In this document: piece after piece, positions 5,599 to 40,366 of the stretch
How positions within the stretch are numbered: the stretch's first letter is position 1
How the letters are laid out: each line of letters opens with the position of its first letter
Assembly: GCA_037444665.1 (NCBI GenBank)
Contig: JBBILZ010000006.1
Span: forward strand, 56-64,055
DNA: 64,000 nt
Source of the DNA: a candidate division WOR-3 bacterium
GTDB taxonomy: Bacteria; Hydrothermota; Tepidihabitantia; SM23-42; JAOAFX01
Reading direction: 5' to 3'
Program-made: the position numbers and the translations under genes
The notes under the pieces: model-generated
The model's input: the letters and a program-made list of their open reading frames with translations, nothing else
Database searches by the model: none
Told to the model about the DNA's origin: nothing

Positions 5599-6903
5599 TT
5601 AAGCATCACCTCTATTCACTTCCTGTTCATTTTTATCTTGTTCGTGTTCTAATATTTGTGTCTTTTGGTCACTTTCCAACATTTTTATTTCAGCAATTGA
5701 TGCACCTGCTATACCTTTGATTGAACCATAAAAGTTTACTGCATTAATCAAGATCTTGTCGAGTTGTTTCTCTCGTTCCTTCCATATTTTCTGCATTTTT
5801 AGTTTTTCATCTTGGTAATTGTCTTGCAATGATTTAAAACCTTCAACAATCGCACCGAATTGACCTTTAAATTCTTGGCTTGTTAGATAATTGTAGAGCA
5901 TTTCCATTTTAATCTCTTTTCCATGCTGAGTAATCACAACTGAATGTATTTGTATCAATCCATGTCTAAGTGCAAGAGACAATCCTCTTATTTCAAAAAA
6001 CGAACAAATCCAAACACCATCTTTAAAGAAAAACTTATCTTCTTCTGCGGGCATTGTTTCTGTAACAAGCACCAAAAGATTGGCTTTTACTTCCAGATTG
6101 TCATCCCGCAATTTCTGCAGCCAGTTATAGTCAAAGCTTTTCGTTCGCTTGCTTTCATAATAAATCTTACCACATTCAGCACCGTCTTCATTTTTAACAA
6201 TCTGCAAAACATCGGCACCACGTTGTCCTTTCTTGATCTCCTTAATTTCATCATTAGGATATAACAACTTAAGCATGTTTTCGAGCGCTAATTCCTGAAT
6301 TTCGCCCTGAAGTTGCATAGATCCTTGCTCAGCCTTTCTTTTTGCTGCGCCAAGCTGCTCGGTTAGTTCTTCGATAATTTTGTCCTTTTCCTTGATTTTA
6401 AGGATATTTTCCTCATCAATTTGTTTTGCAATTTTTAACTTTTCGGCCTTTAGTTTCTCACTATATTCCTTTTCTTTCTCTAGAGCAATTTGGTCACGTA
6501 TTTCCTCCTTTTCTCTTTTTAATTTTTCTATTTCTGCCCTTGTCTTGTTTAACTCTTTTACTTGCTCTGATTTTTCCTCAAGTGCTTTTTGTAGTAGTGC
6601 AATTTGATCCGAGGTCTCGCCTTGAATCTCTTCTCGCAATGTCTTTTCTAATTTTAATTTCTCTGCTTTGATTTTGCTCTGAACTTCTGTATCAACAATT
6701 TCTTTGAGTGATTGTCTTTCTTTGTCTATTTTTTCTCTCTCTGTATTTATTTCTTGCAGTTTTAACTGCAGTTCTTTCTCTTTTCTCGCAATTTTTTTCT
6801 CAAAATCTTTTTTTATGTCGTTTTCAATTTGTCCATACAGAGCAGCATTAACATTTATTTCGGTGCCACATTTAGGGCATTTAATTATATTATCATTTTT
6901 CAT
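5599..6903 (-). CDS. Zn-ribbon / long coiled-coil / DUF2130-domain protein (PD-(D/E)xK-like C-terminal domain)
   Basis: N-terminal CPKCG zinc ribbon, about 200 aa of E/K-rich coiled coil, and a C-terminal ...GQRGADVLQIV...GKIYYESKRTKSF... that fits DUF2130 with a D...E-x-K nuclease-like motif. Confidence 0.55.
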   Translation of the reverse strand: MKNDNIIKCPKCGTEINVNAALYGQIENDIKKDFEKKIARKEKELQLKLQEINTEREKIDKERQSLKEIVDTEVQSKIKAEKLKLEKTLREEIQGETSDQIALLQKALEEKSEQVKELNKTRAEIEKLKREKEEIRDQIALEKEKEYSEKLKAEKLKIAKQIDEENILKIKEKDKIIEELTEQLGAAKRKAEQGSMQLQGEIQELALENMLKLLYPNDEIKEIKKGQRGADVLQIVKNEDGAECGKIYYESKRTKSFDYNWLQKLRDDNLEVKANLLVLVTETMPAEEDKFFFKDGVWICSFFEIRGLSLALRHGLIQIHSVVITQHGKEIKMEMLYNYLTSQEFKGQFGAIVEGFKSLQDNYQDEKLKMQKIWKEREKQLDKILINAVNFYGSIKGIAGASIAEIKMLESDQKTQILEHEQDKNEQEVNRGDA

Positions 6904-7020
6904 ATATTCCTCCTGTCACATTTTTCTAATCGGCGATTAAAATGTCATAATTTTAACCTGTAGCTATTATGTGCAATAAGAATTTTAGTAACTATAAGAA
7001 TTAAAATCGCTTTTAAAGTA

Positions 7021-7485
7021 TTATTCATTGTTGTTCATATTTCTTTTGAGGCGGTAATAACGGCGGGTGTAATAAGTCCAGGATTTTGCTGAATCCAATG
7101 ACAACTTATTGTTTACATTTTTTCTGAACATTAATAAACGTCTTATTGTCCTCTCTGAAACTTTTAAATCACGTGCAAAATGCTTGTTGGCATAATTTAA
7201 GAAAAAACCTGTTTTATCTGATATTGTTAGGAACTGCCATAGTTTATCTGCAATATCCCAATAAAGAAAAATTTTCTGTTGATTTGAAGTATTAGTAATT
7301 GCATTTAACTGCTGTTTGCAAAATTCAATAGTCTCCCTATAAAGGTTTTCAAGATGTTCTACTTTTGATGTCAATTCTGTATCGGCTCGTTTTTCTTTTA
7401 ACAGCTCGCTCATTTGAATCTTGGCAACATAAATTATTTCATTATTTTGCTTTCTTGGTTCAATTTCAAAAAATATCTTATCCAT
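7021..7485 (-). CDS. Hypothetical protein (154 aa), translationally coupled to the upstream GHKL ATPase gene
   Basis: Its start at 7485 abuts the GHKL stop at 7486. The segment ...VSERTIRRLL... could be an HTH. No confident family assignment. Confidence 0.4.
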   Translation of the reverse strand: MDKIFFEIEPRKQNNEIIYVAKIQMSELLKEKRADTELTSKVEHLENLYRETIEFCKQQLNAITNTSNQQKIFLYWDIADKLWQFLTISDKTGFFLNYANKHFARDLKVSERTIRRLLMFRKNVNNKLSLDSAKSWTYYTRRYYRLKRNMNNNE

Positions 7486-8997
7486 TTATTTAAGATTACC
7501 CCAATTAGTTAAATATTTATTCAAAATCAGCATCTTATCTTGGTCTTGCGGTAATTCCTTGATAAGAGCAAAACCGATAGCTAAGACATAATGATATGTG
7601 ATCTGCCCAGTTTTTTCGGCAGACTTAAATGCAGGATGTGCCTTGTTGATAAAGACTTTTTCTATTCCTTCAGTCCAACTAATATCTTCTCGTGTTTCAT
7701 CGCTAAGAAAACTTATTGTTGGGCCAAATTTAATGGATCTCGGTCTTTTAGTTATTGGTTGATCAGTGCCGGGTTGTATCAGTGTGTCACCAAAATCTGG
7801 AACTACTGTGGTTCCTGAACCAGAGGCAGTGCCACCGGATTCTTCGCTAACTGGCATTTCTTGCGTCTGACCCTCTACCAATTTAGCAGTATCCTCGCTT
7901 TCTTTAGCTGTTAATAACACATCTTTGACTTGTCTTGCACTATACAATATATGAAGCTCCGGAATATCCGCTATGATTTTACTTACAAGTTTGGTTAAAC
8001 TATTAGTAAGATCTGCATCTTTCTCTTCCTCCACTTTAATTTCTCTTTGACCTATTTCTTCAAGCCATTTGATGAAGTTTTGCTGCGCAATTCTGCTGAA
8101 ACTGTAATATTTTTGTCCACAATAACCATCCTTGCGAAAAGCCGTCTTTGAAGTTACCAAGCAGTCAACGAGTTCGGGAACCTCAATAATACCGGAGATT
8201 TTTTCTGGGTTTTTTGGCTGTTGCTTAAACAATTCTTTTTGCTCGGTATTGATAATCTTCCCAAAGCATGATATTCCGATGCCCTGAAATTCTTCTGCGA
8301 TTGGCTCTTTACACAAAGAAAACTTGCATATTCCAAAAGGTTTCTTTTTTCTTCCCCTTGTTAGGAAAATCCGAGGTGATTCTTTTTCCGTATCAATCGT
8401 GGGCAATTTTATGACATCACCATTTAAAACAAAAGTAACACCAGCCGGGTAAACTTTGGCAAGTTTATAAAAATCCTCAAATAAAAATAGAGGCTGATAG
8501 TGCTTTAACATTATAGATTCAATCTTTTTATCGTCTAAAAGCAAAGATTCTCGGGACTTTAAATATATTCTTACTAATGTTCCTTGTGTATCAATCAAAG
8601 ATGGTTTAATATCTTCCCATTCCGGTTCTTTGCCAACAAATTCCCAATTAGATGTAAATTTGTATTTACCAGTGCAAGTCTCAGTGACAATTTTTTCAGC
8701 AATTCTTAGTGCCAATTTGGCACCCAACCCCGCAAAACCAATTCCTTTGCCTTTTTCTTTGAAGGTCATTGAAAAATTGTGGTAATTTTCAAATTCTTTT
8801 TCATTCATTCCCTTTCCGTTATCTTGTATTTCGAAAACCTTGGACTCTTTATTAGTATTTATTTTAATAACACTTGCCTTTGCATCTAAAGAATTAGCGA
8901 TTGTTTCTACCAAAACTGCTTCTTCAACTGAAAATGGGTACATACCTGCAAGGTCTTCTAAAAAGTGTTGATAATCAGTTGTGCTTTTATGCCTCAT
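7486..8997 (-). CDS. GHKL-superfamily ATPase (HATPase_c_3 / prokaryotic MORC-like)
   Basis: Bergerat-fold motifs are present: E..ANSLDA (N-box), DNGKGM (G1) and GIGFAGLGAK (G2). It lies 2 nt downstream of the Type IIG RM gene on the same strand. Confidence 0.65.
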   Translation of the reverse strand: MRHKSTTDYQHFLEDLAGMYPFSVEEAVLVETIANSLDAKASVIKINTNKESKVFEIQDNGKGMNEKEFENYHNFSMTFKEKGKGIGFAGLGAKLALRIAEKIVTETCTGKYKFTSNWEFVGKEPEWEDIKPSLIDTQGTLVRIYLKSRESLLLDDKKIESIMLKHYQPLFLFEDFYKLAKVYPAGVTFVLNGDVIKLPTIDTEKESPRIFLTRGRKKKPFGICKFSLCKEPIAEEFQGIGISCFGKIINTEQKELFKQQPKNPEKISGIIEVPELVDCLVTSKTAFRKDGYCGQKYYSFSRIAQQNFIKWLEEIGQREIKVEEEKDADLTNSLTKLVSKIIADIPELHILYSARQVKDVLLTAKESEDTAKLVEGQTQEMPVSEESGGTASGSGTTVVPDFGDTLIQPGTDQPITKRPRSIKFGPTISFLSDETREDISWTEGIEKVFINKAHPAFKSAEKTGQITYHYVLAIGFALIKELPQDQDKMLILNKYLTNWGNLK

Positions 8998-8998
8998 C

Positions 8999-11900
8999 TT
9001 ATTCCTCCGTTTTCATTACTTCCTGCCACAGAAGGTGTAGTACTTCACGCTGGGTTTTAGGACTCAAGATAGATAGAACCTCCTCTTCAATGACCTTGTC
9101 AATTTTTTCTCTTAATGCAGATAACTCAGGCAATATTTTTTTAAGATATTTTTCGTCATTGGGAATTTTTATAGTATCTAACCCCATTCCAATAAAATTT
9201 TTGAGATATTCGGCTTCAATTTCAGTTTCACATTCAATAAAAGCATTAGTCCCCCTAAGACGCCACTTAAATAGGTCTTTTTCAATTTTAATTTTTCCTT
9301 CAATTTCGGGTAAAGTTTTTTCATAGCAAGGTTTTGTTAAAATCTTTTCCCTATAGAATCTGCCCAAAGTATTATCGCCAAGTTGTGAGACAAGATTTTT
9401 TACTAACAATTCAATATCTATCCCTTCTTTGCTCTTTTTCTTCTTACCTTTGTCTTTTGCCTTTTTAATACGTGAATTAACTAAATCCACCACTGCCCGA
9501 TAAATCTCAAGTTGTTCTTCATCGGTAAGCCCGAGTATCTCACCCATAATAATTTTATCCAATTCCCTGCGGTCTGGTTTGATTTTGTCTAGTGTTACAT
9601 CTTTAGATTGAGTACTCCCCAGTTCATCAAAAACAGTCCCAAAATCTCTGCTTTTAAATGTTTCAAACATTGCGAGTAGAGTTTTTTTAGTGTTTTCCAA
9701 AATCTTGCGAGGATTTAATACGGGGAGTTTTTCAACTTCATAAACCATGAATCCAGTGGGAGCACCACCTCCTCCATAACTTCTGCCTAAAATATCTGGA
9801 TACAGAAATGCTATAGTTGAGTTAAAATATAACACAATTATCTTATTTATATCATCTACACTACTTTCGCATTCATACAATGTATGATCAACAAAACAAT
9901 TAAACAAATTCAGATGATATTTATAACTCTGTTGAAAGTACATTGTGAAAAGTACCTTGTAAGGATACCATTCTCCCAAATCATACCATCTGTTTCTACT
10001 CGCACAAGTTGGTCTTTTATGATAGCCTTTTCGTTCGCCCCACTGAATATATTTTAAGACATTTGTGCCTTTTAAATCTTTTTTATCTTTATGAATCATC
10101 AGGACTCGGTATTTTAAGTCTTCTGGTTTAACTATGATTGTTTTACATTCCCGGGGGCTTTTAATCACATAATTGGGAACCCAGTTGCCTTTATCGTCCT
10201 TATGCATCCAGAACTCTTTTTCAATTTTCTACTTTTTGATTTCTTCTTCGGTCAGATAGAAAAACTCATTGGCACCGGTTTTGATACCGAATCTCACTTC
10301 TGCAAGTTCCTTTAATGGCAAAAGTTTGTCTTTGCCCTTCTCTAAAATCTTAAAGAAAATCTGCGGCGCCCTTATATATTTGCCCCATTTTGAACCAACA
10401 TATTTCTGTTCTTCTGGGTCAAAGCCTTCGTCCCAGAGTTCTTTTTGTTTTTTGGGAATATTCTCAAATCTTCATTCTCATAAAGCTCATTATGGAAAAG
10501 TATGGTCTTTATTAATTCATCTATTTTGTTAAATCGTTCTTTCTCTTTTGCCCAATTATTAACCAGGGGGGGTATAAAATCCGATAGTTTCTTTTTTAAA
10601 TAAACAAACCTTACTAAATTTTCATCACGTTCCTGTGCATTTTTACATTTCTGAAGAATAACAATGCAGGTGTTAATATCTGCATCCTCAAACCAGCGCT
10701 CAACTTTGGATTCAATGATTGTAACTATCTTATAGTTTTTCAGAAAAAATTCTTGAAGACCCTTACCATAATCCACATCAAGCCAGGAATTGGATACGAT
10801 AAAACCAAAATACCCAGTATCTTTCAAAAATTTTGTGCCGTGGATAAAAAAGTAGGTATGAATACCCGCCCGTTTTGAAATATCGGCAAGTTTTTGATTA
10901 TTTAAAAAAAGCGCCTTTTTTATAAGACTGCCTTTCTCTACGCCAGTCTCTGGAATCTCTTCTTGTCGGGTATAAGGAGGATTACCAACAATGCAATCAA
11001 ACCATCGTGGATAAGTTACTTCTTTACCCATCTTACCGAGGGCTACCGTAACCACCTTACGCCATTTTTCGGGTAGTTCTAAACCCTCGGGTGAAGATAA
11101 TAGGTTAAAGAAGTCATCATGGACAATCATCGGATAATTCTTGTCCACAGATAAATCTCTAATAGCCAGATTTATTGTTGATAGGTGGGCTGGGAATTTA
11201 GCGATATCAACACCCCATAAATCCTTTAAGATTTCCTCATGTTGAAGCATTGAATTCATCAATTTCTTATGTTGATATGCCCTGACTAAAAAAGTTCCTG
11301 CGCCGCAAGCAGGGTCAAGAACTTTGTCCTTTTCATGATGCATACAGAACCTTAAAATAATGTCGACGATATTGGTGTTTGTAAAGTATTGACCCAGATT
11401 ATGACGTTCTTCAGCCGGAATTAACTGTTCAAAAATATAACCGATTATGTCATAAGTTAGATTGGAAAAATTGTAGCGCCTTAATATTTTCACCAAATTT
11501 TTTATTTCTGTTACGACTGCTGCATTATCAGGGAAAGCTAACTCATCAATAAAATCACTTGAATATACGGTCTCGTAGTCTATTTCTAGGACATCATTAA
11601 AATAGTTTTGCAAATGATTCTTAAGTAATCCACCTTTGGTTAAATCATCTGGAATATTTAATGGATCAAGTTTACGCTGTCTTTTAGCCTGAAGTGCATT
11701 ATAAAAGACAATTTTATTAACCAGAAGATAGGCGGTTTGCCGTGCAGCTTTAACAAAGTCTATATCTTGACCATTAAATTCCCATAATTGTTCATTGAAC
11801 CAATTTTTCAATTGCTGGCGAAATTCTTTATTCTTGTGATATTCATCTTCAATGATGACTTTGTAATATCGTGCAAGACGATTGACCTTTTCTTGCAAAC

Positions 11901-12480
11901 GCCAAACCAATAATTGATTTATTTCAATTAAAGGCTCAGATTTTTCCCCGGTGACAAACTGCGCAATATCTAAAATTAATTTCTCCAACCCTGCGTAGAT
12001 GCTGTTACGAAATTTTGGAAGTTCAATTTCATTCAGATCGGCAATCTGAGAAAGTTCATATCTGCCGACCAATTGCTCTTCAATAGGCTTCATCTCATTT
12101 ACTTTAATAGTGTTGAACAAAAAAAGGGACTGGAAATTAGATATCGCAAAATAACGGGCTTTTCTTCGGGCGGCTTTTTTGCGTGCAGGTTCTTTTAAAT
12201 TCTCCTCGTCGTCAGGTTCGTAAAAAGGTGCCTTGAATTCCAAAAGGCAAATAATTTCTTCATCTACCCTGCCTTTATATAATACAACATCGGGACGGGC
12301 GCGGTCACCAGGATGTTTTGTTTCAACTTCAGCAATACCAAGGGGAATATTCTTCTCTTTTATAATTTCATTAATCCATTCCATTATTTTGGCGGTTGCA
12401 GTCCATTCGGTTTTAATGACAAAATCTTCTATGGGACTCGGTGTTCGCTGGGTGCTTTTCAGAAGTTTACTTTTTTTCAT
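8999..12480 (-). pseudogene. MmeI-like Type IIG restriction-modification enzyme (PD-ExK nuclease + gamma-class N6-adenine MTase + TRD), disrupted
   Basis: The N-terminus has RPDVVLY...LLEFKAP (PD-ExK). MTase motif I is DPACGAGTFL and motif IV is GNPPY. After a -1 shift in the A/T homopolymer around 10440-10456, the reading continues as ...ELWDEGFDPEEQKYVGSKWGKYIRAPQ...VRFGIKTGANEFFYLTEEEIKK. An in-frame TAG follows at 10229-10231. The 402-aa downstream ORF (8999-10207) is in the same frame and has a TRD-like sequence. Confidence 0.6.
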
Positions 12481-17178: not shown

Positions 17179-17207
17179 TTGACTTTTCAGTAGATTTGAA
17201 TTATAAT
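17179..17207 (+). promoter_or_regulatory. Promoter TTGACT-17-TATAAT, 8 nt before the ATG at 17216
   Basis: TTGACTtttcagtagatttgaatTATAATtcagtattATG. Confidence 0.5.
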
Positions 17208-17215
17208 TCAGTATT

Positions 17216-17623
17216 ATGGCAGGACCTACTGTGGCAATTAGTTTAACGAGTGAAAAGATTGAAAAACTTGAAAAATTACTTAATGAATTCTTCAGCCAGT
17301 CAAATGTGGTATGGTCAATGCTCATTACCAGTGCTGGACACCTTCTGGTTCAGAGGGGGTTTACACATACATTTGATACCCTTGCTATTGCTGCCCTTAC
17401 CTGTAATATATTCAATTCTACAATGGAACTGGCAAAGATTATCGGCGAAAAAAATTTTTATGAATTACTCCAGGAAGGGAAAAAGGCGAGTGTTTACTAT
17501 GTATCACTCAATGGAAACTACTTACTGGTTTCACTTTTTGATGACCGCACTATTCCCGGGGTCGTTAAGGTTGCATCAGAAGAATTTTCAAAAAATGTTA
17601 CAAATATTCTGAGGACAATATGA
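17216..17623 (+). CDS. Roadblock/LC7 (MglB-like) domain protein
   Basis: 135 aa. The sequence pattern (...SMLITSAGHLLVQ...LAIAALTCNIFN...SLNGNYLLVSLFDD...) fits the Roadblock/LC7 fold. Confidence 0.65.
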   Translation: MAGPTVAISLTSEKIEKLEKLLNEFFSQSNVVWSMLITSAGHLLVQRGFTHTFDTLAIAALTCNIFNSTMELAKIIGEKNFYELLQEGKKASVYYVSLNGNYLLVSLFDDRTIPGVVKVASEEFSKNVTNILRTI

Positions 17624-19524
17624 TTAAGAAAACAATAGACTTTCAAAATCTCTATATTTACGAAGGCAATAAAGTTGCTTTTATGGCAGCACAGAAGATT
17701 ATTGAATTTCCCGGTGAGATATTCAATCCTTTCTATGTTTATGCCACAAGCAGTTATGGTAAAACCTATTTTCTCTGGGCATTATATGGAGAATTTACCA
17801 AAAAAGAGCCTGCCCTGTTTTTTACACCCAAAGAATTTGAAGATTATTTGCAAAGCACAAATCAATTTGACTCAGCAATCTTTGTGGATGATATAAATCG
17901 CATTGCGGAAAGATTCCAGGAACAGATGCTCACACTCGTTGATATCTTAATATCAAAGAACAAACAACTATGTTTTTCTGGAAATGTTGCACCGCGTGAA
18001 CTGAAAAATTTGAGTTCAAAGATTATATCCCGTATTGAAGGCGGATTGGTCTGTGACATCCAGGCACCAAGAGAGATGGCATTGGTTGATTTTATAAAAA
18101 AGAAATCTGAGGAAAGGGGCATAATTCTTCCTGACGAGATTGCGCTTGAACTCACCCAGCTTTCTGCAGGTTCTTTCAGAACAATTGATGGTATGCTAAA
18201 CCGTCTCGTCGCCTATGCCTCGCTGGGCAATATCACATTTGATTTAAATACAGTGCGTTTGATCTTAAAAGAATTTTACCCGCGCGGCATTTATAGTCCT
18301 GTTGCTTCTCTGGTAGAAGAATTGAAAAAGAGTGCGGATGCAATCCTGCCAGAAATTTCCGAGAAAAAAGACCCATACAGTGAATATAAAGAAAAAATCT
18401 ATATCTGGGAAATGAAAGGATTTGATACCTCAGAGCTAAAACCCCTACTTGATGGTAATATTGAAACACTTGCTGATGCCTATAATAAATTCATTAAAAA
18501 AGTTGAGAAATTGATAGAATTACAGAAAGAATTTGGTGCTATTGATACTTCAAAATTTCCTGAAGAGGCGATGAGAATAGAGACTATGCTCTTTTCTCCT
18601 GACAAAATTGAAGAGATTGAAAATCTGCTTTCCAACATAAAAGAAAGACTCAAGGCTGAAGAGAAAAAACCCTTTGAAAATTATCTTATTGGTGAATGTA
18701 ATAGAACCGTGCTTGAACTATATGAAAAATCAATATTGCCCAATCTGGGCAAAAAATTTAATCCGTATGTAATATTTGGACCTCCAGGAACCGGCAAGAC
18801 CTTTCTCTGTGCAGAAATATTTTCAGACCTGAAAATAAAAGGGTACAGACCTGTAGTAATTGATTTTGAACAACAATTACCTGAACTACAACAGACCCTG
18901 GATGCGAAAAATGCATTATTGATTGACAATTTTCATAAAATCCTGCAGATAGAACTAGAACTGCGTAATAAATATACAGAAATTATTCTTGATTATATAA
19001 AGCAGGAGTATCCAGTATTTATATTTTCTGAGCCATTTTCCCAAGATGTGCAATTGACTGAAAATGAAAAACTCTTATTTGAATTTGGCGTAGAAGCCAG
19101 ACTAAATGAGCCTGACCCGGAAATAACAAAGACCATACTCAGTGCAAAACTAACACCTGAGGAATTTGAGGAAGTGCAGGGCAAAGGCATTCCCCAATTT
19201 AAAAACTTTAATGAATTTGATGATTTTATTAAAAATTTAAGGACGTCTCAACCGGTTACTGAAGTACCAGAAACAGAGACAGTGGTCAGTCTGGGACTTC
19301 CAGGAGAAGAAACTATCATACCTGCACCTGCGCCTGAGGAAATCAAAGAACCTGAACCGCAACAATTAGCGACAACCGAATTGGTTGAACCTGTGAAAAC
19401 ACCTGAACCGACTGTTTCCGTAGAAGAACCGCTCAAGAAACTAAAAGAACAGAGACTTCTTGTCCAAGAAATCCTTGATGAACTACTGGAAGAAAGTTAT
19501 GAACCACTAAACAAGAAGGCATAG
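17620..19524 (+). CDS. Protein with two tandem DnaA/Hda-like AAA+ domains and a Pro/Glu-rich tail (not a replication initiator)
   Basis: Domain 1: TIDFQNLYIYEGNKVAFMAAQ...FNPFYVYATSSYGKTYFL...AIFVDDINRIAERFQEQ...SRIEGGLVCDIQAP. Domain 2: FENYLIGECNRTVLELYEK...FNPYVIFGPPGTGKTFL...LLIDNFHKI. There is no DnaA domain IV. The C-terminus is a PAPAPEEIKEPEP... tail. Confidence 0.6.
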   Translation: MIKKTIDFQNLYIYEGNKVAFMAAQKIIEFPGEIFNPFYVYATSSYGKTYFLWALYGEFTKKEPALFFTPKEFEDYLQSTNQFDSAIFVDDINRIAERFQEQMLTLVDILISKNKQLCFSGNVAPRELKNLSSKIISRIEGGLVCDIQAPREMALVDFIKKKSEERGIILPDEIALELTQLSAGSFRTIDGMLNRLVAYASLGNITFDLNTVRLILKEFYPRGIYSPVASLVEELKKSADAILPEISEKKDPYSEYKEKIYIWEMKGFDTSELKPLLDGNIETLADAYNKFIKKVEKLIELQKEFGAIDTSKFPEEAMRIETMLFSPDKIEEIENLLSNIKERLKAEEKKPFENYLIGECNRTVLELYEKSILPNLGKKFNPYVIFGPPGTGKTFLCAEIFSDLKIKGYRPVVIDFEQQLPELQQTLDAKNALLIDNFHKILQIELELRNKYTEIILDYIKQEYPVFIFSEPFSQDVQLTENEKLLFEFGVEARLNEPDPEITKTILSAKLTPEEFEEVQGKGIPQFKNFNEFDDFIKNLRTSQPVTEVPETETVVSLGLPGEETIIPAPAPEEIKEPEPQQLATTELVEPVKTPEPTVSVEEPLKKLKEQRLLVQEILDELLEESYEPLNKKA

Positions 19525-21111
19525 ATGGCGATTAAAGGCTCATTGAGTGAAGCAACCTTGCCCGATGTGATTCAACTTTTGAGTTATTCATTGAGGTCAG
19601 GATGCCTGTCTGTAACTGATGGAAAGAATTTTGGAAATATTTTTATCAAAGATGGAAAGATAATCTATGCTACACTTCTCAATCGCAAGGACAGATTAGG
19701 TGATATTCTTGTGCGCAAACAGAAGATTGATGAAACGATTTTGAAATCAGCACTTGATGAACAACGCCAGACCAATAAACGGTTAGGAGAGATACTCGTA
19801 GAAAAGGGCTATATTACCAGAGAAATCTTAGAGAGTGAATTAGCAAACCAGATCTCTGAAACAATCTTCACCATGCTCACCTGGGAGACCGGCTATTTCA
19901 ATTTTGAAGCTGACCTATTACCGGGTAGTGAAGATTTTCTCGTTCAATTATCACCGCAGGAATTACTCCTTGAAGGTGCCCGCCGTATAGATGAATGGCG
20001 CAAGATTGAAAAAAGGTTACCTCCATTTGAGACGGTGCTGGCAGTAAAAAAGGATTATACTGGTATTCCGTTAACTTTTGAAGAAGAAAAAATTTTAACC
20101 CTTATTGATGGAAATCGGACCATTGATGATATTCTGAAACTCTCAGAATTTGATTTTTTTGAAACCTGCCGAACAATCTATGCCTTAATCTCTGCCGGCA
20201 TCGTTGAAAAACCTGAAAAGACTGAACTTGTTAGAAAAACTGCTGGCGATATTACAGAATATAAAAATCTTGGCTTTGCCTTTTTCAAAACAGGAATGCT
20301 GGACGAAGCAGAAAGGGAATTCAATAAAATTCTGGAAATTGTGCCTGACAATACTGAAGCACTTATGTATTGTGGACTTATAGAAATAAAACGGAATAAT
20401 TTCACCAGGGCAAAAGATTTTTTACTTAAAGCAGTAAATATAGAAAAGAATCCTTCAATTTTAAATAACCTTGCTTATATTTACAACAAAACAAATCTAT
20501 TTGATGATGCGCTCACTAACCTCAATCAGGCACTGGAACAGGCACCAGAAAATCCCCGTATCAACTGCAATTTAGGTATTGCATTGTTCCATAAAGGAGA
20601 ATTAGAAAATGCCCGTAATCTATTTAAACAACTCATAGAGAAAAAACCAGAATATATAACCGGCTATATATATCTTTCATTAATATATATAAAATCTAAT
20701 GAGATACAATTGGCAGTAGATTTTTTAAAAGAATGCATAAATAAATTTCCCCGCCTCGCTGTTTTCAAAAATAATCTCGCGGTCGTTTATGAAGCAATTG
20801 ACCTACCCGAAGAAGCAGAAAGATATTATCGTCTGGCACTGAATGATGAACCCCAAAATTACTCTATCTGCAGGAATTTAGCCGATTTTTATTATGAATC
20901 GCAGATCCTGGGTGCGGCAAAAGAATTGTATGAAAAGATTCCTGATGAAGAAAAGAACTGGGAGAGTCTGTTTAAATTAGGTAATATCCTTATGCGTTTA
21001 GGTGATGCTGATTCAGCACTCAATTACTGGGAAAAGGCAAAAAATTTAAATCCCGAAAATCAGGTGATAACCCAGAACATTGAACTACTCAAGAAGTCTC
21101 GTGGAAATTAA
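19525..21111 (+). CDS. DUF4388 / MshEN (T2SS-E N-terminal-like) / TPR repeat protein
   Basis: N-terminus GSLSEATLPDVIQLLSYSLRSGCLSV (DUF4388-like). LGEILVEKGYITREILESELANQ matches the MshEN / GspE-N motif. Multiple TPRs follow at the C-terminus. Its ATG follows the TAG stop of the preceding gene directly. Confidence 0.55.
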   Translation: MAIKGSLSEATLPDVIQLLSYSLRSGCLSVTDGKNFGNIFIKDGKIIYATLLNRKDRLGDILVRKQKIDETILKSALDEQRQTNKRLGEILVEKGYITREILESELANQISETIFTMLTWETGYFNFEADLLPGSEDFLVQLSPQELLLEGARRIDEWRKIEKRLPPFETVLAVKKDYTGIPLTFEEEKILTLIDGNRTIDDILKLSEFDFFETCRTIYALISAGIVEKPEKTELVRKTAGDITEYKNLGFAFFKTGMLDEAEREFNKILEIVPDNTEALMYCGLIEIKRNNFTRAKDFLLKAVNIEKNPSILNNLAYIYNKTNLFDDALTNLNQALEQAPENPRINCNLGIALFHKGELENARNLFKQLIEKKPEYITGYIYLSLIYIKSNEIQLAVDFLKECINKFPRLAVFKNNLAVVYEAIDLPEEAERYYRLALNDEPQNYSICRNLADFYYESQILGAAKELYEKIPDEEKNWESLFKLGNILMRLGDADSALNYWEKAKNLNPENQVITQNIELLKKSRGN

Positions 21112-21886
21112 TTTTCAGAATTTAATAAAACTCATTGAAGAGAAAACCGGATTTAAATGTGGCAGTTATAAAGAAAAACCACTCACCCGTCGCATCCGAG
21201 TCCGTATGCGTGCCCTTGGTCTGTCAGAATTCTCTCAATACTACAATTATCTAACGAGCAACCCTGAAGAATTTACAAAATTGCTTGATACCCTGACCAT
21301 AAAATTATCATATTTTTTTAGAAATACAGAAACCTTTGATTATTTAAAAAATGAAATTTTTCCGAGTTTTAAAAATAATGAAAAAATTATTATCTGGAGT
21401 GCTGGCTGTGCCCAGGGTGAAGAACCATATTCCCTGGCAATAATTGCTGCAGAATCGGGAATTTTAGACCGGGTTATGATCTATGCGACCGACATTGATG
21501 ACCATGCCCTAAAAAAAGCAAAGGCAGGTGATTATCCATCAATCGTGTTTCAATATACTCCCCAATTATATATTGAAAAATATTTTGAAAAGATTGGTGA
21601 GAATTACCGGATAAAAGACCATCTTAAATCAATTATTCAGTTCATCCATCTTGACCTTTTTGATAATTGTCCCTTCCCATTATGTGATGTCATTATGTGC
21701 CGCAATGTTTTAATTTATATGGACCGCAATGCCCAATCAGTTCTCGTGCGGAAATTCCTTGATAATTTAAAGCCGGGCGGATATCTGGTAATTGGCAAGG
21801 TTGAATTACTCCTTGGTATTCCTGAGGCAAAGTTTTTTTCTATTGTCAATCGTTCTGAACGCGTATACCAGAAGATCAAGGCATAA
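21080..21886 (+). CDS. cheR: Chemotaxis protein methyltransferase CheR
   Basis: CheR N-terminal domain plus a SAM MTase (IWSAGCAQGEEPYSLAI). Confidence 0.8.
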   Translation: MNYSRSLVEINFQNLIKLIEEKTGFKCGSYKEKPLTRRIRVRMRALGLSEFSQYYNYLTSNPEEFTKLLDTLTIKLSYFFRNTETFDYLKNEIFPSFKNNEKIIIWSAGCAQGEEPYSLAIIAAESGILDRVMIYATDIDDHALKKAKAGDYPSIVFQYTPQLYIEKYFEKIGENYRIKDHLKSIIQFIHLDLFDNCPFPLCDVIMCRNVLIYMDRNAQSVLVRKFLDNLKPGGYLVIGKVELLLGIPEAKFFSIVNRSERVYQKIKA

Positions 21887-21912
21887 AATGAACCCATTCA
21901 TTAAAAAAGCAG

Positions 21913-22374
21913 ATGGCAATTGAACAAAAAGTTGGCATAGGTGAAATAAAGATTGCAAAAGGTGATGTTGTCCTTTCTGCGTATGGTGTTGGTTCCTGCG
22001 TGGTCTTAACTTTCTATGATGCGGAAACCAAGACCGGTGGGCTCGCCCATATTCTATTGCCCCATGGTGCAGATGGCAGTTTCAAACATCCCAGAGGTGC
22101 AATTGAAGAGATGCTTAGACAATTTAGTGCCCTGGGCATTGACCGAAAAAAGATTGTAGCAAAAATTGCTGGTGGTTCCACAATGTTCGGAGAATTGATA
22201 CAAACTTCTATTGGGCAAAGAAATGTTGCTGAAACCAGGGAACAATTGAAAAAATTCTCTATTTTTCTCGCGGCAGAAGATGTCTATGGAAATTGGGGCA
22301 GAACTATCTTTTTTAATCTGAATACCGGTGATGTAGTAATCAGCTCATACCGCCACGGAGAAAAAATTATATAA
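21913..22374 (+). CDS. cheD: Chemoreceptor glutamine deamidase CheD
   Basis: VLSAYGVGSCVVLTFYD...GGLAHILLP matches the CheD family. Confidence 0.8.
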   Translation: MAIEQKVGIGEIKIAKGDVVLSAYGVGSCVVLTFYDAETKTGGLAHILLPHGADGSFKHPRGAIEEMLRQFSALGIDRKKIVAKIAGGSTMFGELIQTSIGQRNVAETREQLKKFSIFLAAEDVYGNWGRTIFFNLNTGDVVISSYRHGEKII

Positions 22375-23387
22375 TGAAAAAGAAAGTATTAATTGTAGAA
22401 GACTCGGTATTAATGCAAAGGGTAATAGGTGATATAATCCAGTCTTCAGGAGAATTTGAAGTATGCGGTTACGCGCGGGACGTGAGTGAGGCGTGGGCAA
22501 AATTTAGTAAATTAAGACCCGACCTTATTACCCTTGATTTTGAACTACCTGGTGAAAATGGGCTTGTCTTTTTACAAAAGATTATGGCAAATAATCCGAC
22601 GCCTGTTTTGATGCTTTCCGCACACACCCGACAGGGTGCAGAGATTACCATCAAGTCACTGGAACTGGGTGCAGTAGATTTTTTCCCTAAACCATCTGGT
22701 CCAATCTCTATTGACCTCTATGACTTCAAAGAGGAGTTGCTCTTAAAATTGCGGGGAGTTGCGCGAGCAAATCTTAGACCAGTTTTACCTGCACCTCAAA
22801 TCAAACCGATAACCAGGAAGATTGATTATGTAATCGGTATTGCTGCATCTACTGGTGGTGTTAAGGCATTGAACTTTTTAGTATCTTCTTTAAGCAGTGA
22901 AACAGGCTACAGAATTATTATTGTCCAGCATATGCCCAAATTCTTTACGGCGAGTCTGGCATTACATTTAGATGAGAAATCAAGCCTTTCTGTAAAAGAG
23001 GCAATAAATGGTGACCCTCTCTCCTGTGATACAGTATTCATCGCACCTGGCGGCAATCATATAAAGGTTCATCCTTCAGGTCAGATGGTCATTTTAACTG
23101 ATGAACCACCCAGGCATGGATTAAAACCCTGTGCTGACCTGCTCTTTGAATCAATGGCTGAAGTTTACAAAAACAGAGCTCTGGGCATTGTCCTCTCTGG
23201 TATGGGACACGATGGAACTGCTGGATTGAAAAAAATTAAAGCGATGGGTGGACTGACAATTGCCCAGGACCCATCTGAGGCAACTATCGGAAGCATGCCC
23301 CAGTCTGCAATAGATGCGGGTGTTGTGGATTATGTATTACCATTGCCTTTGATAGTAAATAAATTGACCGAATTGGCGCAGATATGA
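22374..23387 (+). CDS. cheB: Protein-glutamate methylesterase CheB (receiver + methylesterase)
   Basis: Receiver domain (VLIVEDS...ITLDFELPGENG) and methylesterase domain (IGIAASTGG, HMP, GMGHDG). Confidence 0.85.
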   Translation: MKKKVLIVEDSVLMQRVIGDIIQSSGEFEVCGYARDVSEAWAKFSKLRPDLITLDFELPGENGLVFLQKIMANNPTPVLMLSAHTRQGAEITIKSLELGAVDFFPKPSGPISIDLYDFKEELLLKLRGVARANLRPVLPAPQIKPITRKIDYVIGIAASTGGVKALNFLVSSLSSETGYRIIIVQHMPKFFTASLALHLDEKSSLSVKEAINGDPLSCDTVFIAPGGNHIKVHPSGQMVILTDEPPRHGLKPCADLLFESMAEVYKNRALGIVLSGMGHDGTAGLKKIKAMGGLTIAQDPSEATIGSMPQSAIDAGVVDYVLPLPLIVNKLTELAQI

Positions 23388-24250
23388 TTGAAAAGATTAA
23401 ACACCAGTTAGATGAACTTAATAGATTGATAAAAGAGTATACCCCTGCCCAGGATAAAACGATTAAGGAATTGATAAAAAAGTTATACATTGATATTGCG
23501 AATGGGATAAAATATTTGAATCAAGCACAGGATGACCTGTATCGCCTTGCTCGCGATTTACGAGATAGAAAAACGAACCGTGTTGATATGGACCGCTTTT
23601 ATTCATTCATTAAAGCAAAGGCTTCTCCTGAACTTGACATTGCTACATATCTTGACCGCGCCTGGAATTTAATCGTTATGGAAGAATATGATGAAGCAAT
23701 AAATATTCTAAAAAAGGTGCTTGAAATTGACCCGAAAAATCTGCGCGGACTTGGTCTGATCGGCCTTGGCTTGATGCATAAAGAGATGTATGATGATGCA
23801 ATGTTATATTTTCAAAAAGTTCTATTGATTGAGCCGAGCAATCCATTTGCCTTGAATAACTTAGGATTTATTTGCTACAAAAAAGGAATCTGGGGTGAGG
23901 CAATTGAACATTTGAGCAAGGTTGCGAAACAGACCAGGGACAGGATGGCAAGGCTCTATGCCAATTACTATCTTGGCCTGGTCTACTACGAAAGGGGTAT
24001 GGTTGCTGATGCCATAAAGTTTTTTGAAGAAGCACTCAAGCTCGGTCCTAACCTCCAGGAAGTTTCTTATTATCTTGGTCTTGCTGAATTAAAAAGATAT
24101 GAATTCCATAAGGCAGTTGAATATTTTGAAAAGTGTATAAAGATTGACCGGGAATCAAAATATGGAAAACTTGCTCAGGAAGAGGCAGAAAAGATCAAAC
24201 CCATTATTGAACCAATGTCAATAAAAAATCGCAATAAACAAGATTCTTGA
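23384..24250 (+). CDS. TPR repeat protein
   Basis: Multiple TPR motifs. Overlaps cheB by 4 nt. Confidence 0.5.
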   Translation: MIEKIKHQLDELNRLIKEYTPAQDKTIKELIKKLYIDIANGIKYLNQAQDDLYRLARDLRDRKTNRVDMDRFYSFIKAKASPELDIATYLDRAWNLIVMEEYDEAINILKKVLEIDPKNLRGLGLIGLGLMHKEMYDDAMLYFQKVLLIEPSNPFALNNLGFICYKKGIWGEAIEHLSKVAKQTRDRMARLYANYYLGLVYYERGMVADAIKFFEEALKLGPNLQEVSYYLGLAELKRYEFHKAVEYFEKCIKIDRESKYGKLAQEEAEKIKPIIEPMSIKNRNKQDS

Positions 24251-36546: not shown

Positions 36547-37661
36547 ATGTTTAGAGTTCTCAAGAAAGACCAGAACACGATGGCACGTGTTGGTCTTTTG
36601 AAAACCAAATCTTTCTCTGTGACAACACCAAATTTTATGCCGGTTGCAACGCAGGGAACAGTAAAAACACTTTCACCATATGATTTAAAAAAGATTGGCG
36701 TAGAAATTATTGTGTGCAATACCTATCATCTGATGCAAAGGCCCGGAACTGCCCTGATAAAAAAGTTGGGAGGATTGCACAAATTTATTGGTTGGACAGG
36801 AGCAATTCTTACAGACTCAGGAGGGTTCCAGGCTTATTCTTTAAGTGAATTGAGAAAAGTAAATGATGATGCTTTAACATTCTCTTCGCATATAGATGGT
36901 TCTCGTATTACATTGAGCCCGGAAACAGCCATAGGAATACAAAGAGATTTAGGAACTGATATTGCAATGTGCCTTGATTTTTTTACACCCTATCCATCAG
37001 AATTTATTGAAGCAAGAATTGCCGTTGAAAGAACCGTAAAATGGGCAAAACAGAGTCTGAAGGTAAAAAAAAACCGCGTTTATTTGCGATTATACAGGGC
37101 GCGACATTCAAAGATTTACGCAGGGAATGTGCCCAGCGCCTTCTGGAATTAAAGTTCCCTGGTTATGGCATCGGTGGATTGATGATTGGTGAACCATCAA
37201 CCCTAACCATGGAAATGGTAAAAGAAACAAATCAGGTCATTCCTGAAAACAAGGTTCGCTATTTAATGGGATGTGGATATCCTGAAGATATTGTTGAGGC
37301 AGTAAGTCTTGGGGTTGACCTATTTGATTGTGTCTTACCCACCAGAAATGGTAGAACCGGTATGGCATTTACCTCAGAAGGAAAGATTATTATCAAGAGT
37401 AGCCGCTATGCCCAGGACAAAAGTCCTCTGGATAAGAACTGCCAATGTTATACCTGCCAGAATTTTTCCCGTGCTTATCTACGACATCTCTTTAATGCAG
37501 GCGAAGCGCTGGCTGGCAGACTGGTAAGCTATCACAATATCAAATTTTATATTGACCTTATGCACAAAATCCATTATTACATAAAAAGAGGCGAATACGA
37601 TAATTTTCTGCAAAAAACAAGGAAATTGTTTAACTTTCGTCAGGAAGGCAATAATGTTTAA
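36547..37661 (+). pseudogene. tgt: Queuine tRNA-ribosyltransferase (tgt), split by a 1-nt deficit in an A9 tract (37065-37073)
   Basis: ORF 36547-37152 carries DSGGFQ. ORF 37041-37661 continues ...KKKPRLFAIIQGATFKDLR...GYGIGGL with the Zn site (C..CYTC..H). The two frames join if the tract is A10. Confidence 0.8.
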
Positions 37662-37766: not shown

Positions 37767-38813
37767 GTGAATATGTTCGGGAAAAAGAAAAGAGTGATCG
37801 GTCTTGATATTGGATCAAGTCAAACAAAGATTGTTGAGCTTTCGCCAGGTAAAACTAAAAAACTTATTAATTATGGCATTTCAAAAATATTGCCAGATGC
37901 GATTGTAGAAGGTGAAATCATTGACCGGGAAGCGGTCCTTGATTCAATCAGAACACTGCTTGAATCCCGCAATATCACCACCAAGGATGTGGTAATTGGC
38001 CTTGCAGGAAGAGATGTGATTATTAAACGAATTGTAATGGACCGGCTTAGTGAAGCAGAAACGAGGGAGCACATAAAATGGGAAGCAGAACAGTATGTTC
38101 CTTTTGATATTCAAGAGGTAGAACTTGATTTTTATGTTATCAATCCAAACTTTGGCGAAAATCAACAAGAAATCGTTATTGTTGCGGCAAAAAAAGAATT
38201 GATCAATAATCTGACAACTTTACTAAAAGACCTGAATCTCAACCCGGTAATCATTGACACTGCCGCATTTGCCCTGCAGAATGCTTACGAATACAATTAT
38301 CAACCAAGCCCTGATGAATCCATTGGGTTATTGAATATCGGCGCGGGAATGACAATAATTAATGTAATAAAGGGTGGTAGTTCATTGTTGGCACGAGATG
38401 TGTACTATGGCGTGAACTCTTATATCAATAAATTACAAAAAGAGATCGGTTTTAATTACGAAGATGCCGCAAATGCAGTGAAAGGGACAATACCAGTAGG
38501 TGCTTCTCAGGATTCTATCCAGGGTGTATTTGAATCATTTGTGAATGACCTGAGCACCCAGATTGAAAGAAGTTTGCAGTTTCTTTCAACTGTAACCGGT
38601 GAAGAAAAGGTTAATAAGATGTTCATCACTGGTGGTGGTGCATTAATCCCAAATCTTGTTGAATATTTGAAACGCAGGTTAAATGTAAATGTTGAAGTCT
38701 TTAACCCGTTCAAAAATATTCTTTATGACCCCACAATATTCGCACCCGAAGGGGTTGATGTGATTGGTCCAATTTTAACCCAGGCAGTTGGTCTTGCATT
38801 AAGGGGGGACTAA
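37767..38813 (+). CDS. pilM: Type IV pilus assembly protein PilM
   Basis: Actin-like ATPase fold (IGLDIGSSQTKIVEL). Confidence 0.85.
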   Translation: MNMFGKKKRVIGLDIGSSQTKIVELSPGKTKKLINYGISKILPDAIVEGEIIDREAVLDSIRTLLESRNITTKDVVIGLAGRDVIIKRIVMDRLSEAETREHIKWEAEQYVPFDIQEVELDFYVINPNFGENQQEIVIVAAKKELINNLTTLLKDLNLNPVIIDTAAFALQNAYEYNYQPSPDESIGLLNIGAGMTIINVIKGGSSLLARDVYYGVNSYINKLQKEIGFNYEDAANAVKGTIPVGASQDSIQGVFESFVNDLSTQIERSLQFLSTVTGEEKVNKMFITGGGALIPNLVEYLKRRLNVNVEVFNPFKNILYDPTIFAPEGVDVIGPILTQAVGLALRGD

Positions 38814-39418
38814 TGATAAAAATAGATCTATCGCCAAGCCCTAAAAAGGGTAAGGCACCAAAAGCCAAACCTGCAAAACCCGGTGCACCTCCAATTAAGT
38901 TACCATCCATAAAATTAGGTGCTGTCTATATTCTGGGTATTGCAGTAGTTGTGGTTATAATCGCCATTTTGCTGATTATTCAATCCAGTAAAATTGGCGG
39001 GCTAAATCGTAATATTAACGAATTAAGGACACGGCTTGATGAATTAAAGGTTTATGTTGCTACTGTCGATAGTCTTAAAAAACGAGAAAAAGAATTGACC
39101 GCACTCATTTCACCGATTCGTGAACTGAATCAAAATCGTTTTTTAATTGCCCATATCCTTGACGAAATTTCAGCCCGCATTCCAGAATTCACCTGGCTAA
39201 CAATGTTAAATGTGACTTCCCAGAATATAAGTATAAAAGGTACGACTGCTTCAAATCTCCTGGTTGCTGATTTTATGAATCGACTTGAAGAATCTCCCTA
39301 CATCGCAAATGTTGACCTTACAGTTCTGGAAAAGAAGACGATTGAAAAACAAGAGATGATGGAATTTACCCTTACCGCAAATGTTAAGATAGATACAATA
39401 CAGGGAGGTAGCAAATGA
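38813..39418 (+). CDS. pilN: Type IV pilus assembly protein PilN
   Basis: Single TM segment plus coiled coil. Position and size are typical of PilN. Confidence 0.7.
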   Translation: MIKIDLSPSPKKGKAPKAKPAKPGAPPIKLPSIKLGAVYILGIAVVVVIIAILLIIQSSKIGGLNRNINELRTRLDELKVYVATVDSLKKREKELTALISPIRELNQNRFLIAHILDEISARIPEFTWLTMLNVTSQNISIKGTTASNLLVADFMNRLEESPYIANVDLTVLEKKTIEKQEMMEFTLTANVKIDTIQGGSK

Positions 39419-39987
39419 AATTAAAGGAACCTAAAACTCAGCAGACCATCGTATTTTTTGTGGTTTTAATTTTGGTGCTAATTCTGTTCTTCAGGTTTCC
39501 CTATACTTCAAATCAGCACAAAATAAAAAGTCTTGTAGCAAAAAAGGATTCATTACAGATAAAAGTTCAAGAGGCTGAAGCAGCAAAGGCACGTTTACCT
39601 GAATTACAGGCAAGAATTGCACGACTTGAAGCAGAATGGGAAATTGCCAAAGAAATGTTGCCGCAGGAAAAAGAAATCCCCAAATTAATTCAACAGATCT
39701 CTAATTCCGGAACAAAAGCAGGTGTAAGTTTTCTCCTGTTCAAACCGAGTGGTCCTGTTCCCAAGGCAAATTACTCAGAAATTCCAGTACAGATAAAAAT
39801 TGCATGCGGTTATCATCAACTGGGTAAATTCCTCTCTAATGTTGGAAACCTATCACGAATTGTAAATGTTCCGGCAATAAAGATTGCTCCAGGTAAGGAC
39901 CGCAGTACTGAAGCAGAATTGCAAACAATAACATACACAGTTGCAAAAAAACAGGAGGTGCCAAGTGGTGCTCCACGCCGTCGGTAG
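39415..39987 (+). CDS. pilO: Type IV pilus assembly protein PilO
   Basis: TM segment plus coiled coil. PilO-like C-terminal domain. Confidence 0.7.
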   Translation: MKLKEPKTQQTIVFFVVLILVLILFFRFPYTSNQHKIKSLVAKKDSLQIKVQEAEAAKARLPELQARIARLEAEWEIAKEMLPQEKEIPKLIQQISNSGTKAGVSFLLFKPSGPVPKANYSEIPVQIKIACGYHQLGKFLSNVGNLSRIVNVPAIKIAPGKDRSTEAELQTITYTVAKKQEVPSGAPRRR

Positions 39988-40363
39988 TATTCTTTCATTA
40001 CTTGTAATCTTCAATCAAGCACCCGCTGGTGATTCACTATTCCCCGTAGAAAAGTACAATTATGAAGCGGCAGGACGTAGAGATCCATTTGTACCTCTTC
40101 TTGGTCTGGAACTGGGTGGTGGTAAGACCGGACATCTCAGTCCCGAAAATCTCCGTCTCATTGGTGTGCTATGGGGCGACCGCGGTTATTATGCACTGGT
40201 AAAGGATGGACAGGATAATGGTTATATCTTGAAACGGGGAGATCGTGTTGCTGGTGGTCATGTGAGTGAAGTTAATCGCCAGGCAATAATATTTGAAATT
40301 ATGCATGCAGGTGTAGTAACAAAATATGAGTTAAGGCTTCAAGAGGAAAAAGAAAGGAGGTAG
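39941..40363 (+). CDS. pilP: Type IV pilus assembly protein PilP-like (the true start is probably downstream of 39941)
   Basis: RDPFVPL motif and a beta-rich C-terminus. The ORF overlaps pilO by 47 nt. Confidence 0.55.
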   Translation: MQKNRRCQVVLHAVGSILSLLVIFNQAPAGDSLFPVEKYNYEAAGRRDPFVPLLGLELGGGKTGHLSPENLRLIGVLWGDRGYYALVKDGQDNGYILKRGDRVAGGHVSEVNRQAIIFEIMHAGVVTKYELRLQEEKERR

Positions 40364-40366
40364 ATT

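Follow-up and report, generated by a model that had tools for sequence, protein, structure and literature searches.

What is a protein with a doubled ATPase module of the replication initiator DnaA doing among signalling genes? The question is raised by an open reading frame (ORF) at positions 17620-19524 of a 64,000-nucleotide stretch of DNA from a candidate division WOR-3 bacterium (assembly GCA_037444665.1, contig JBBILZ010000006.1, positions 56 to 64,055), the whole of which is referred to here as the window; its G+C content is about 36%. DnaA domain III is regarded as a module dedicated to replication initiation and its regulation, as in DnaA and Hda. In the protein described here it has been duplicated, has lost the DNA-binding domains, is fused to a previously undescribed helical domain and is fixed in an operon with chemosensory, PATAN and Roadblock genes.

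Judged by its sequence, the gene product is a non-replicative descendant of DnaA with two domain III AAA+ modules, a helical domain (the M domain) between them and an acidic tail. The family to which it belongs is conserved and uncharacterised, some of its members are mis-annotated, and both its architecture and its gene context are new for the DnaA AAA+ module. A search of the literature on DnaA-like or tandem DnaA proteins in connection with PATAN, MglB, chemotaxis or WOR-3 did not find a description of this family. The gene is the middle member of a translationally coupled trio (Roadblock, tandem ATPase, PATAN-MshEN-TPR) which is followed by cheR-cheD-cheB. The arrangement is conserved in WOR-3, Stahlbacteria and TA06, and the relatives include one metagenome-assembled genome (MAG) of the Gemmatimonadota.

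Domain architecture of the tandem ATPase

The ORF is real: it begins with ATG, encodes 634 amino acids (aa) followed by a stop codon, and has approximately 100 full-length homologs sharing 36-93% identity. The best public match, at 96% protein identity, is in a candidate division WOR-3 MAG (L008). Its parts are as follows.

17620-19524, + strand: tandem DnaA-like ATPase, whole ORF
17620-18264, + strand: N module (aa 1-215), DnaA domain III-like AAA+ with lid
18265-18354, + strand: linker (aa 216-245) with the near-invariant EFYPKGIYSPV.SL.EELKK
18355-18654, + strand: M domain (aa 246-345), all-helical, about 100 aa, motif EKIYIWEMKGFDTS
18655-19245, + strand: C module (aa 346-542), degenerate DnaA domain III-like AAA+
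19246-19437, + strand: acidic, Pro/Glu-rich disordered tail (aa 543-606)
19438-19500, + strand: conserved C-terminal segment (aa 607-627), KEQRLLVQEILDELLEESY

The N module

Residues 3-220 match the DnaA equivalog TIGR00362 [4.8e-42; model positions 105-339 of 437], and residues 4-146 match Pfam Bac_DnaA [PF00308; 5e-24]. Profile-profile comparison of the N module with DnaA gave an E value of 2.6e-40, and the family profile matched domain III of Bacillus subtilis DnaA with 3.5e-43 as against approximately 5e-8 for Hda and DnaI. The best superposition of the predicted fold, obtained with Foldseek, was on B. subtilis DnaA domain III [8bv3; TMt 0.82, root-mean-square deviation (rmsd) 2.8 Å]. The landmarks of the module are Walker A (A42-T49), Walker B (D90, D91), the box VII arginine (R138) and the sensor II arginine (R187). 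In motif counts over 98 family sequences K48, D90, D91 and R138 were each present in all 98, and R187 in 97. On this alignment the N module keeps all of the residues expected for nucleotide binding, hydrolysis and the arginine finger.

The Walker A sequence of the N module, ATSSYGKT, is restricted to the subclade to which the window copy belongs, the family consensus being G.TGLGKTH. An initial annotation, made from the sequence alone, had described it as degenerate. This was overstated: the sequence, which is peculiar to the subclade, conforms to the minimal P-loop pattern [AG]x4GK[ST], and the degenerate module is the C module. The initiator-specific insert (ISM) is approximately 12 residues shorter than in B. 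subtilis DnaA (deletions of 4 and 8 residues in the HMM alignment), and AlphaFold2 (AF2) predicts a single helix (aa 70-79) in this region, between strands 65-68 and 86-89. Taken together the deletions and the single helix suggest that the insert is present in shortened form.

The C module and its relation to the N module

When the C half was scanned alone its top match was again TIGR00362 [1.3e-10; model positions 90-287]. It scored 26.3 bits with Bac_DnaA, above the cut-off of 23; its best PDB match was Aquifex DnaA [3.9e-10], and profile-profile comparison with DnaA gave 5.4e-20. The DnaC-like, IstB and RuvB models were weaker than DnaA by five or more orders of magnitude. The P-loop is retained as Walker A G387-T394 (G387, G390, K393, T394), with K393 found in 89 of the 98 sequences. 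Walker B is D436-N437, the aspartate being present in 97 and the asparagine in 92. A hydrophobic residue takes the arginine-finger position (L486 here; I, L, V or F in the family), the sensor II arginine is replaced by F530 (F or Y in the family), and the lid is short, with three helices. As aligned, the C module is left with no more than the P-loop and the first aspartate of Walker B, and is the degenerate member of the pair. With an Asp-Asn Walker B and neither arginine finger nor sensor II, it would be expected to bind nucleotide but leave it unhydrolysed, and to donate no arginine.

The two modules are homologous to one another (hhalign: probability 99.4%, 3.4e-21, 159 columns), and since both halves also match DnaA best, the two tandem DnaA/Hda-like AAA+ modules of the initial annotation are upheld. 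The strings that it had pointed to ahead of each Walker A are present, FNPFYVYATSSYGKTYFL and FNPYVIFGPPGTGKTFL; of the box VII-like segments that it saw in both halves, only the one in the N half carries the arginine (R138). It had named an assignment to unrelated AAA+ clades such as IstB or RuvB as what would refute it; the profiles place both halves with DnaA and not with IstB/DnaC or RuvB, and the structural prediction that it called for superposes the N module on DnaA domain III as given above. The identity of a DnaC/IstB helicase loader was considered for the protein and rejected, the models giving 2e-6 to 3e-5 (PRK08116), 2e-3 to 4e-3 (DnaC) and 4e-3 to 7e-3 (IstB) as against 1e-10 to 5e-42 for DnaA. 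Long branches dominate a neighbour-joining tree that combines N and C modules with DnaA domain III, and the tree gave no date for the duplication.

Missing DnaA domains

No match to Bac_DnaA_C (PF08299, domain IV) was found in the tandem ATPase at E ≤ 1, as the initial annotation had supposed, and DnaA_N (PF11638, domain I) likewise found no match; the protein begins three residues before the domain III match. Among 40 related loci no family member aligns past position ~362 of the 447 of the DnaA model. Lacking the helix-turn-helix domain IV, the tandem ATPase could not recognise DnaA boxes. The whole protein scores 144.5 bits with the DnaA equivalog TIGR00362 (cut-off 343.9) and 79.7 bits with the Hda equivalog TIGR03420 (cut-off 194.8), and its N terminus, MIKKTIDFQNLY, is without the clamp-binding motif of the Hda type (QL[SP]LPL-like). 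The view of the protein as a co-opted initiator-like ATPase therefore holds: domains I, II and IV are missing, it falls under the DnaA and Hda cut-offs, and its gene lies in a Roadblock/PATAN-TPR/cheRDB operon and not by dnaN.

The window contains no other DnaA-like ORF, which is uninformative in view of the small share of the genome that 64 kb represents. Among the WOR-3 loci surrounding the tandem ATPase there is no canonical DnaA; a scan of all loci gave one, on a Desulfobacteraceae contig (L039). A search for the canonical WOR-3 DnaA with P0105 as query returned only proteins of the Vicinamibacterales and is uninformative on WOR-3, P0105 being itself a DnaA of that group (Acidobacteriota).

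Despite the absence of domains I and IV, UniRef and JGI carry several family members (P0017, P0229, P0381) as "Chromosomal replication initiator protein DnaA" or "chromosomal replication initiation ATPase DnaA". Such labels can mislead origin prediction, replication annotation and metabolic reconstructions of uncultured phyla.

Linker, M domain and tail

Conservation is strongest in the linker and the M domain and not in the ATPase modules. No part of the protein is better conserved than the linker (mean majority frequency 0.85), for which AF2 predicts flexibility, with a predicted local distance difference test (pLDDT) value below 50 for aa 222-249. The M domain modelled alone gave a pLDDT of 88.8 and a predicted TM-score (pTM) of 0.73, and it has no match in Pfam, by sequence in the PDB or by fold in the PDB. 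A phmmer search with aa 220-634 against 1.8 billion cluster representatives revealed the M unit as tandem repeats, 5-22 per protein, in giant proteins of archaea of the Thermoplasmata. In one Thermoplasmata MAG (L042; JAWAQE010000003.1, 3186-11705) two successive giant proteins carry approximately 9-10 M repeats each, and one of them has an N-terminal KaiC/ArlH-like ATPase. The pair lies immediately 5' of an arlH-like gene, archaellin genes and arlC/D/E. This association with the archaellum, seen at one of two Thermoplasmata loci, is a lead only.

The Pro/Glu-rich low-complexity tail recorded in the initial annotation corresponds to aa 543-606 (19% Pro, 22% Glu; isoelectric point 4.1), is predicted to be disordered (AF2 pLDDT ~30) and contains a conserved short motif, LGLPGEE, at aa 558-564. 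Most relatives end with hh[ED][ED]x[YF]-COOH, a motif which is kept even at approximately 30% identity; in the subclade of the window copy seven residues have been added after it. The full-length AF2 model has a mean pLDDT of 74.5, the ATPase modules and the M domain ranging from 77 to 94.

Gene context

The neighbourhood of the tandem ATPase gene comprises the following features.

17179-17207, + strand: promoter-like site (TTGACT and TATAAT, 17 nt apart) in the 50 nt that separate rsmB from the Roadblock gene
17216-17623, + strand: Roadblock/LC7 (MglB-like) protein, 135 aa; Robl_LC7 28.4 bits, cut-off 23
19525-21111, + strand: PATAN (DUF4388)-MshEN-TPR partner; DUF4388 E 1.2e-34
21080-21886, + strand: cheR
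21913-22374, + strand: cheD
22374-23387, + strand: cheB
23384-24250, + strand: TPR protein
37767-41962, + strand: pilM-pilN-pilO-(pilP?)-pilQ, type IV pilus assembly; Pfam PilM_2, PilN, PilO, Secretin

Lying 5' of the trio is rsmB, preceded by recR, yajC, def and fmt in that order. The trio itself consists of the 135-aa Roadblock/LC7 protein, the tandem ATPase and a 528-aa DUF4388 (PATAN)+TPR protein, and on its 3' side follow in order cheR, cheD, cheB, a TPR protein and inositol monophosphatase. The TGA stop of the Roadblock gene overlaps the ATG of the ATPase (ATGA), and the ATG of the PATAN-TPR gene follows immediately on the TAG stop of the ATPase (TAGATG). The cheR, cheD, cheB and TPR genes (21080-24250) all lie on the + strand and meet at junctions that are short or overlapping. 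The promoter-like site agrees with the consensus at 11 of 12 positions, is among the two best sites in 13.5 kb and, on this consensus match, is the likely start of the operon. Pfam bears out the Roadblock and DUF4388 neighbours named in the initial annotation; with the NCBIfam MglB model the Roadblock protein gave an E value of 2.4e-13, under the equivalog cut-off.

The PATAN partner has C-terminal TPR repeats and, in the helical insert of its PATAN domain, two tandem 24-aa motifs of the MshEN cyclic di-GMP (c-di-GMP)-binding type at aa 57-80 and 86-109 (window 19693-19851). They follow the pattern RLGxxLVxxxxIxxxxLxxxLxxQ, and NCBIfam NF053729 scored 60.9 bits (cut-off 38). At least one copy of the motif is present in the PATAN-TPR ortholog of every related locus that has such an ortholog. 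The motifs suggest that the PATAN-TPR protein may be a c-di-GMP receptor.

Conservation of the arrangement

In a scan using one genome per GTDB species the gene was found in 31 species-level genomes, classified as WOR-3, Candidatus Stahlbacteria or TA06, or unclassified. The Roadblock gene is upstream in 30 of the 31, PATAN-TPR is downstream in all 28 loci with downstream sequence, and the order cheR-cheD-cheB was found in approximately 24 of the 26 loci which extend far enough. An Arf/MglA-like GTPase is encoded just 5' of the Roadblock gene in 14 genomes, including both of the complete WOR-3 chromosomes. The initial annotation had regarded a duplicated DnaA module as highly unusual. We found no characterised precedent, so that part stands; with 31 species-level genomes and distant relatives it is a conserved family and not a one-off.

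In the Stahlbacteria-type clade (L001 6917-9429, L005 and 12 other loci) the Roadblock gene is preceded by genes for a 142-aa membrane protein, a DHH/DHHA1 phosphoesterase and the Arf/MglA-like GTPase; in the clade of the window rsmB takes the place of this set. The GTPase is 79-85% identical among loci whose tandem ATPase is 43-50% identical to the window copy.

More distant proteins with tandem DnaA modules and an M domain have 550-1170 aa. Slow-evolving relatives share 43-51% identity with DnaA domain III in both modules and have lost none of the motifs, and in the Gemmatimonadota MAG (L040) both score 258-310 bits with the DnaA HMM and keep every motif. Relatives down to about 30% identity keep a TPR or PATAN-TPR partner; close by there are often che genes or genes for a Ras/MglA-like GTPase or PilT-like ATPase. 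At L041 the gene of a Ras-like GTPase overlaps the start of the ATPase, and PATAN-TPR, cheRDB, TPR, an AAA_22 ATPase, cheW and a methyl-accepting chemotaxis protein (MCP) gene follow, with a pilT-like gene nearby. The order at L006 is cheY-cheA-AAA_22-cheW-cheC/X-TPR-PATAN and then the ATPase. L007 has a pilT-like gene nearby and then the ATPase, a PATAN-TPR-like protein and cheRDB; the P0270 locus (a JGI contig) has PATAN-TPR 3' of the ATPase, and at L040 an 867-aa TPR protein is encoded directly 5' of it. As these distant neighbourhoods again hold TPR or PATAN-TPR, the universal partner is a TPR protein, usually fused to PATAN; che genes and either a small GTPase or a Roadblock protein frequently accompany it. 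At no related locus are dnaN, dnaA or ori-proximal genes neighbours of the tandem ATPase; the neighbours are signalling genes.

An AAA_22 ATPase of 268-272 aa recurs in the che clusters of distant relatives (L006 2035-2853; L041 10813-11619) and may be another uncharacterised accessory component of the same chemosensory class.

Proposed role

The Roadblock fold is a classical regulator of nucleoside triphosphatases (NTPases), and Myxococcus provides a reference system in its Frz-MglA/MglB circuit. The association of PATAN, MglB and MglA genes has been described previously (PMC4316618), and a preprint on Synechocystis (bioRxiv 10.1101/2021.06.11.447907) describes PATAN response regulators which bind the pilus motor PilB. 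By analogy with the Myxococcus circuit, this gene association and these regulators, we propose that the tandem ATPase may be an ATP-gated switch or scaffold of a chemosensory output module for polarity or motility, most likely that of type IV pili; we would put the probability of this at roughly 0.55. The products of pilMNOPQ in the window would then be the candidate machine under its control.

The pairing of a presumably active N module with a C module predicted to be hydrolysis-dead suggests regulated assembly rather than a motor. In such a switch the N module would hydrolyse ATP, its box VII arginine serving head-to-tail contacts in the manner of DnaA, within or between protomers. The C module would hold ATP unhydrolysed as a structural or regulatory site, and the nucleotide state would control assembly. 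The Roadblock protein might modulate the ATPase, the MglA-like GTPase encoded alongside it in about half of the related genomes, or both. The acidic tail with its terminal motif and the invariant TPR partner suggest docking, in which the tail, ending in hhEExY, would bind the TPR domain of the PATAN partner, and the MshEN motifs of the latter would supply a c-di-GMP input.

Several observations weigh against this proposal. The functional case is guilt by association throughout, and the hosts are uncultured. No MglA-like GTPase was found in the window (tblastn, E ≤ 1), nor were cheA, cheW or MCP genes. TA06 DG_78 has neither the Roadblock gene nor che genes, L022 is without che genes, neither che nor PATAN genes are seen at the Gemmatimonadota locus, and only the TPR/PATAN partner is universal. 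In the subclade of the window copy hhEExY is not at the extreme C terminus, which weakens TPR docking of the carboxylate-clamp type. The pTM of the full-length model is 0.38, so the relative orientation of the modules is unreliable and the idea of an intramolecular arginine finger is conjectural. Lastly, the second archaeal M-repeat protein examined (P0232) is not beside archaellum genes.

Were the proposal correct, it would add a new type of ATP switch to the control of bacterial polarity and type IV pili, give the widespread and poorly understood PATAN domain a conserved enzymatic partner and, through the M domain, tie the regulation of bacterial pili to archaeal proteins of an archaellum operon.

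Alternative explanations

Given its ancestry, the protein might still act on replication, co-oligomerising with the genuine DnaA, either like Hda through R138 or by capping or titrating its filaments, and coupling initiation to chemosensory, c-di-GMP or polarity signals. The box VII and sensor II arginines are the residues that serve DnaA-DnaA and Hda-DnaA contacts, the latter in DnaA's regulatory inactivation (RIDA), and their counterparts R138 and R187 show little or no variation; the N module is far nearer to DnaA than to any other AAA+ protein, and the close similarity of the slow-evolving relatives to domain III, with motifs intact, points the same way. We nevertheless regard a replication regulator as unlikely: there is no N-terminal clamp-binding motif and no domain I or IV, the Hda score (79.7 bits) is far from the cut-off of 194.8, the ISM is some 12 residues shorter than that of B. 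subtilis DnaA, the neighbours of the gene are throughout signalling genes, with dnaN, dnaA and ori-proximal genes never among them, and conservation peaks in the linker and M domain and not on DnaA-like surfaces. Still more doubtful is the specific form in which the tandem ATPase would use its conserved box VII and sensor II surfaces to bind the genuine DnaA and, in mixed oligomers, let a chemosensory, c-di-GMP or polarity pathway gate or position replication initiation; if it were true, signalling for behaviour and polarity would be wired directly to the replication initiator. That the protein is itself the actual, highly divergent initiator of the organism, as the DnaA names given to some members by JGI and UniRef would have it, is scarcely credible in view of the missing domains I and IV, a score of 144.5 bits against the equivalog cut-off of 343.9, the acidic tail and the che/PATAN operon.

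The tandem AAA+ layout also recalls the type II unfoldases and remodellers (ClpB, p97, NSF-like), in which stacked hexameric rings thread a substrate, and Foldseek does return chains of Yta7, Hsp104, ClpA and p97 at 1e-9 to 1e-7. The corresponding TM values of 0.2-0.29 and rmsd of 17-28 Å, however, reflect only the generic AAA+ fold. Both modules belong by profile to the initiator (DnaA) clade, whose members form open spirals without classic pore loops, and the C module is without catalytic acid, arginine finger and sensor II; we consider an unfoldase very improbable. An NTPase of a mobile element or of anti-phage defence (STAND, IstB-like or Abi-type) might be suspected from P-loop-level matches to nSTAND3, IstB, AbiO, mad8 and DS8 and from an island resembling restriction-modification genes 5 kb upstream. 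All of these matches, however, lie under their cut-offs and do not extend outside the Walker A region, nothing beyond weak P-loop and TPR matches came from PADLOC, and no transposase or defence partner adjoins the gene. The gene order is conserved vertically across a phylum-level group, beside housekeeping genes, and this synteny effectively refutes a defence or mobile-element function.

Comparison with known systems

With DnaA the tandem ATPase shares homology of both modules to domain III, including the lid, and its N module still has the lysine of the P-loop, both aspartates of Walker B and the box VII and sensor II arginines. It differs in lacking domains I, II and IV, in the doubling of domain III around an unrelated M domain, in the shortened ISM and catalytically degenerate second copy, and in a context of signalling genes instead of oriC/dnaN. 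Hda and HdaA are likewise domain III-only proteins without a DNA-binding domain, the arginine finger of Hda being functional; Hda, however, has one module only, measures about 230 aa and carries a beta-clamp-binding motif at its N terminus, whereas here there are two modules, no clamp motif and a different context.

To the MglA/MglB-PATAN polarity module (Myxococcus, Thermus and the cyanobacterial PatA/PixG type) the locus is related by its Roadblock/MglB-like and PATAN genes, by che and type IV pilus genes nearby, and by the MglA/Arf-like GTPase upstream in 14 related genomes. The window, in contrast, is without an MglA gene, and its PATAN domain is fused to TPR and not to a receiver and carries MshEN motifs. 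We know of no MglA/MglB or PATAN system that has a DnaA-derived ATPase. The pairing of a competent initiator-clade module with a nucleotide-binding module that lacks the catalytic acid and arginine finger is also seen in the assemblies of the origin recognition complex (ORC)/Cdc6 and of clamp loaders, a likeness that points to an asymmetric ATP switch rather than to a motor. In the tandem ATPase both modules are on one polypeptide, with no winged-helix or DNA-binding domain, and the comparison is an analogy only.

Other features of the window

Within the pil cluster a possible pilP is located at 39941-40363. Just before the cluster, two overlapping ORFs (36547-37152 and 37041-37661) share the tgt gene (queuine tRNA-ribosyltransferase) between them and cover positions 3-166 and 167-352 of Pfam TGT; this suggests a frameshift, a pseudogene or a mistake in the assembly. 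The restriction-modification or defence-like island mentioned above (5599-12480, - strand) has negative GC skew and encodes DUF2130 and HATPase_c_3 proteins, a protein with the C-terminal domain of M.Eco57I, and a 702-aa N6-adenine methylase of the Eco57I/MmeI type. At 54841-60676 (- strand) there is a pair of the AddA/AddB type, the one member combining a UvrD helicase with a PD-(D/E)XK nuclease and the other AddB_N with a PD-(D/E)XK nuclease.

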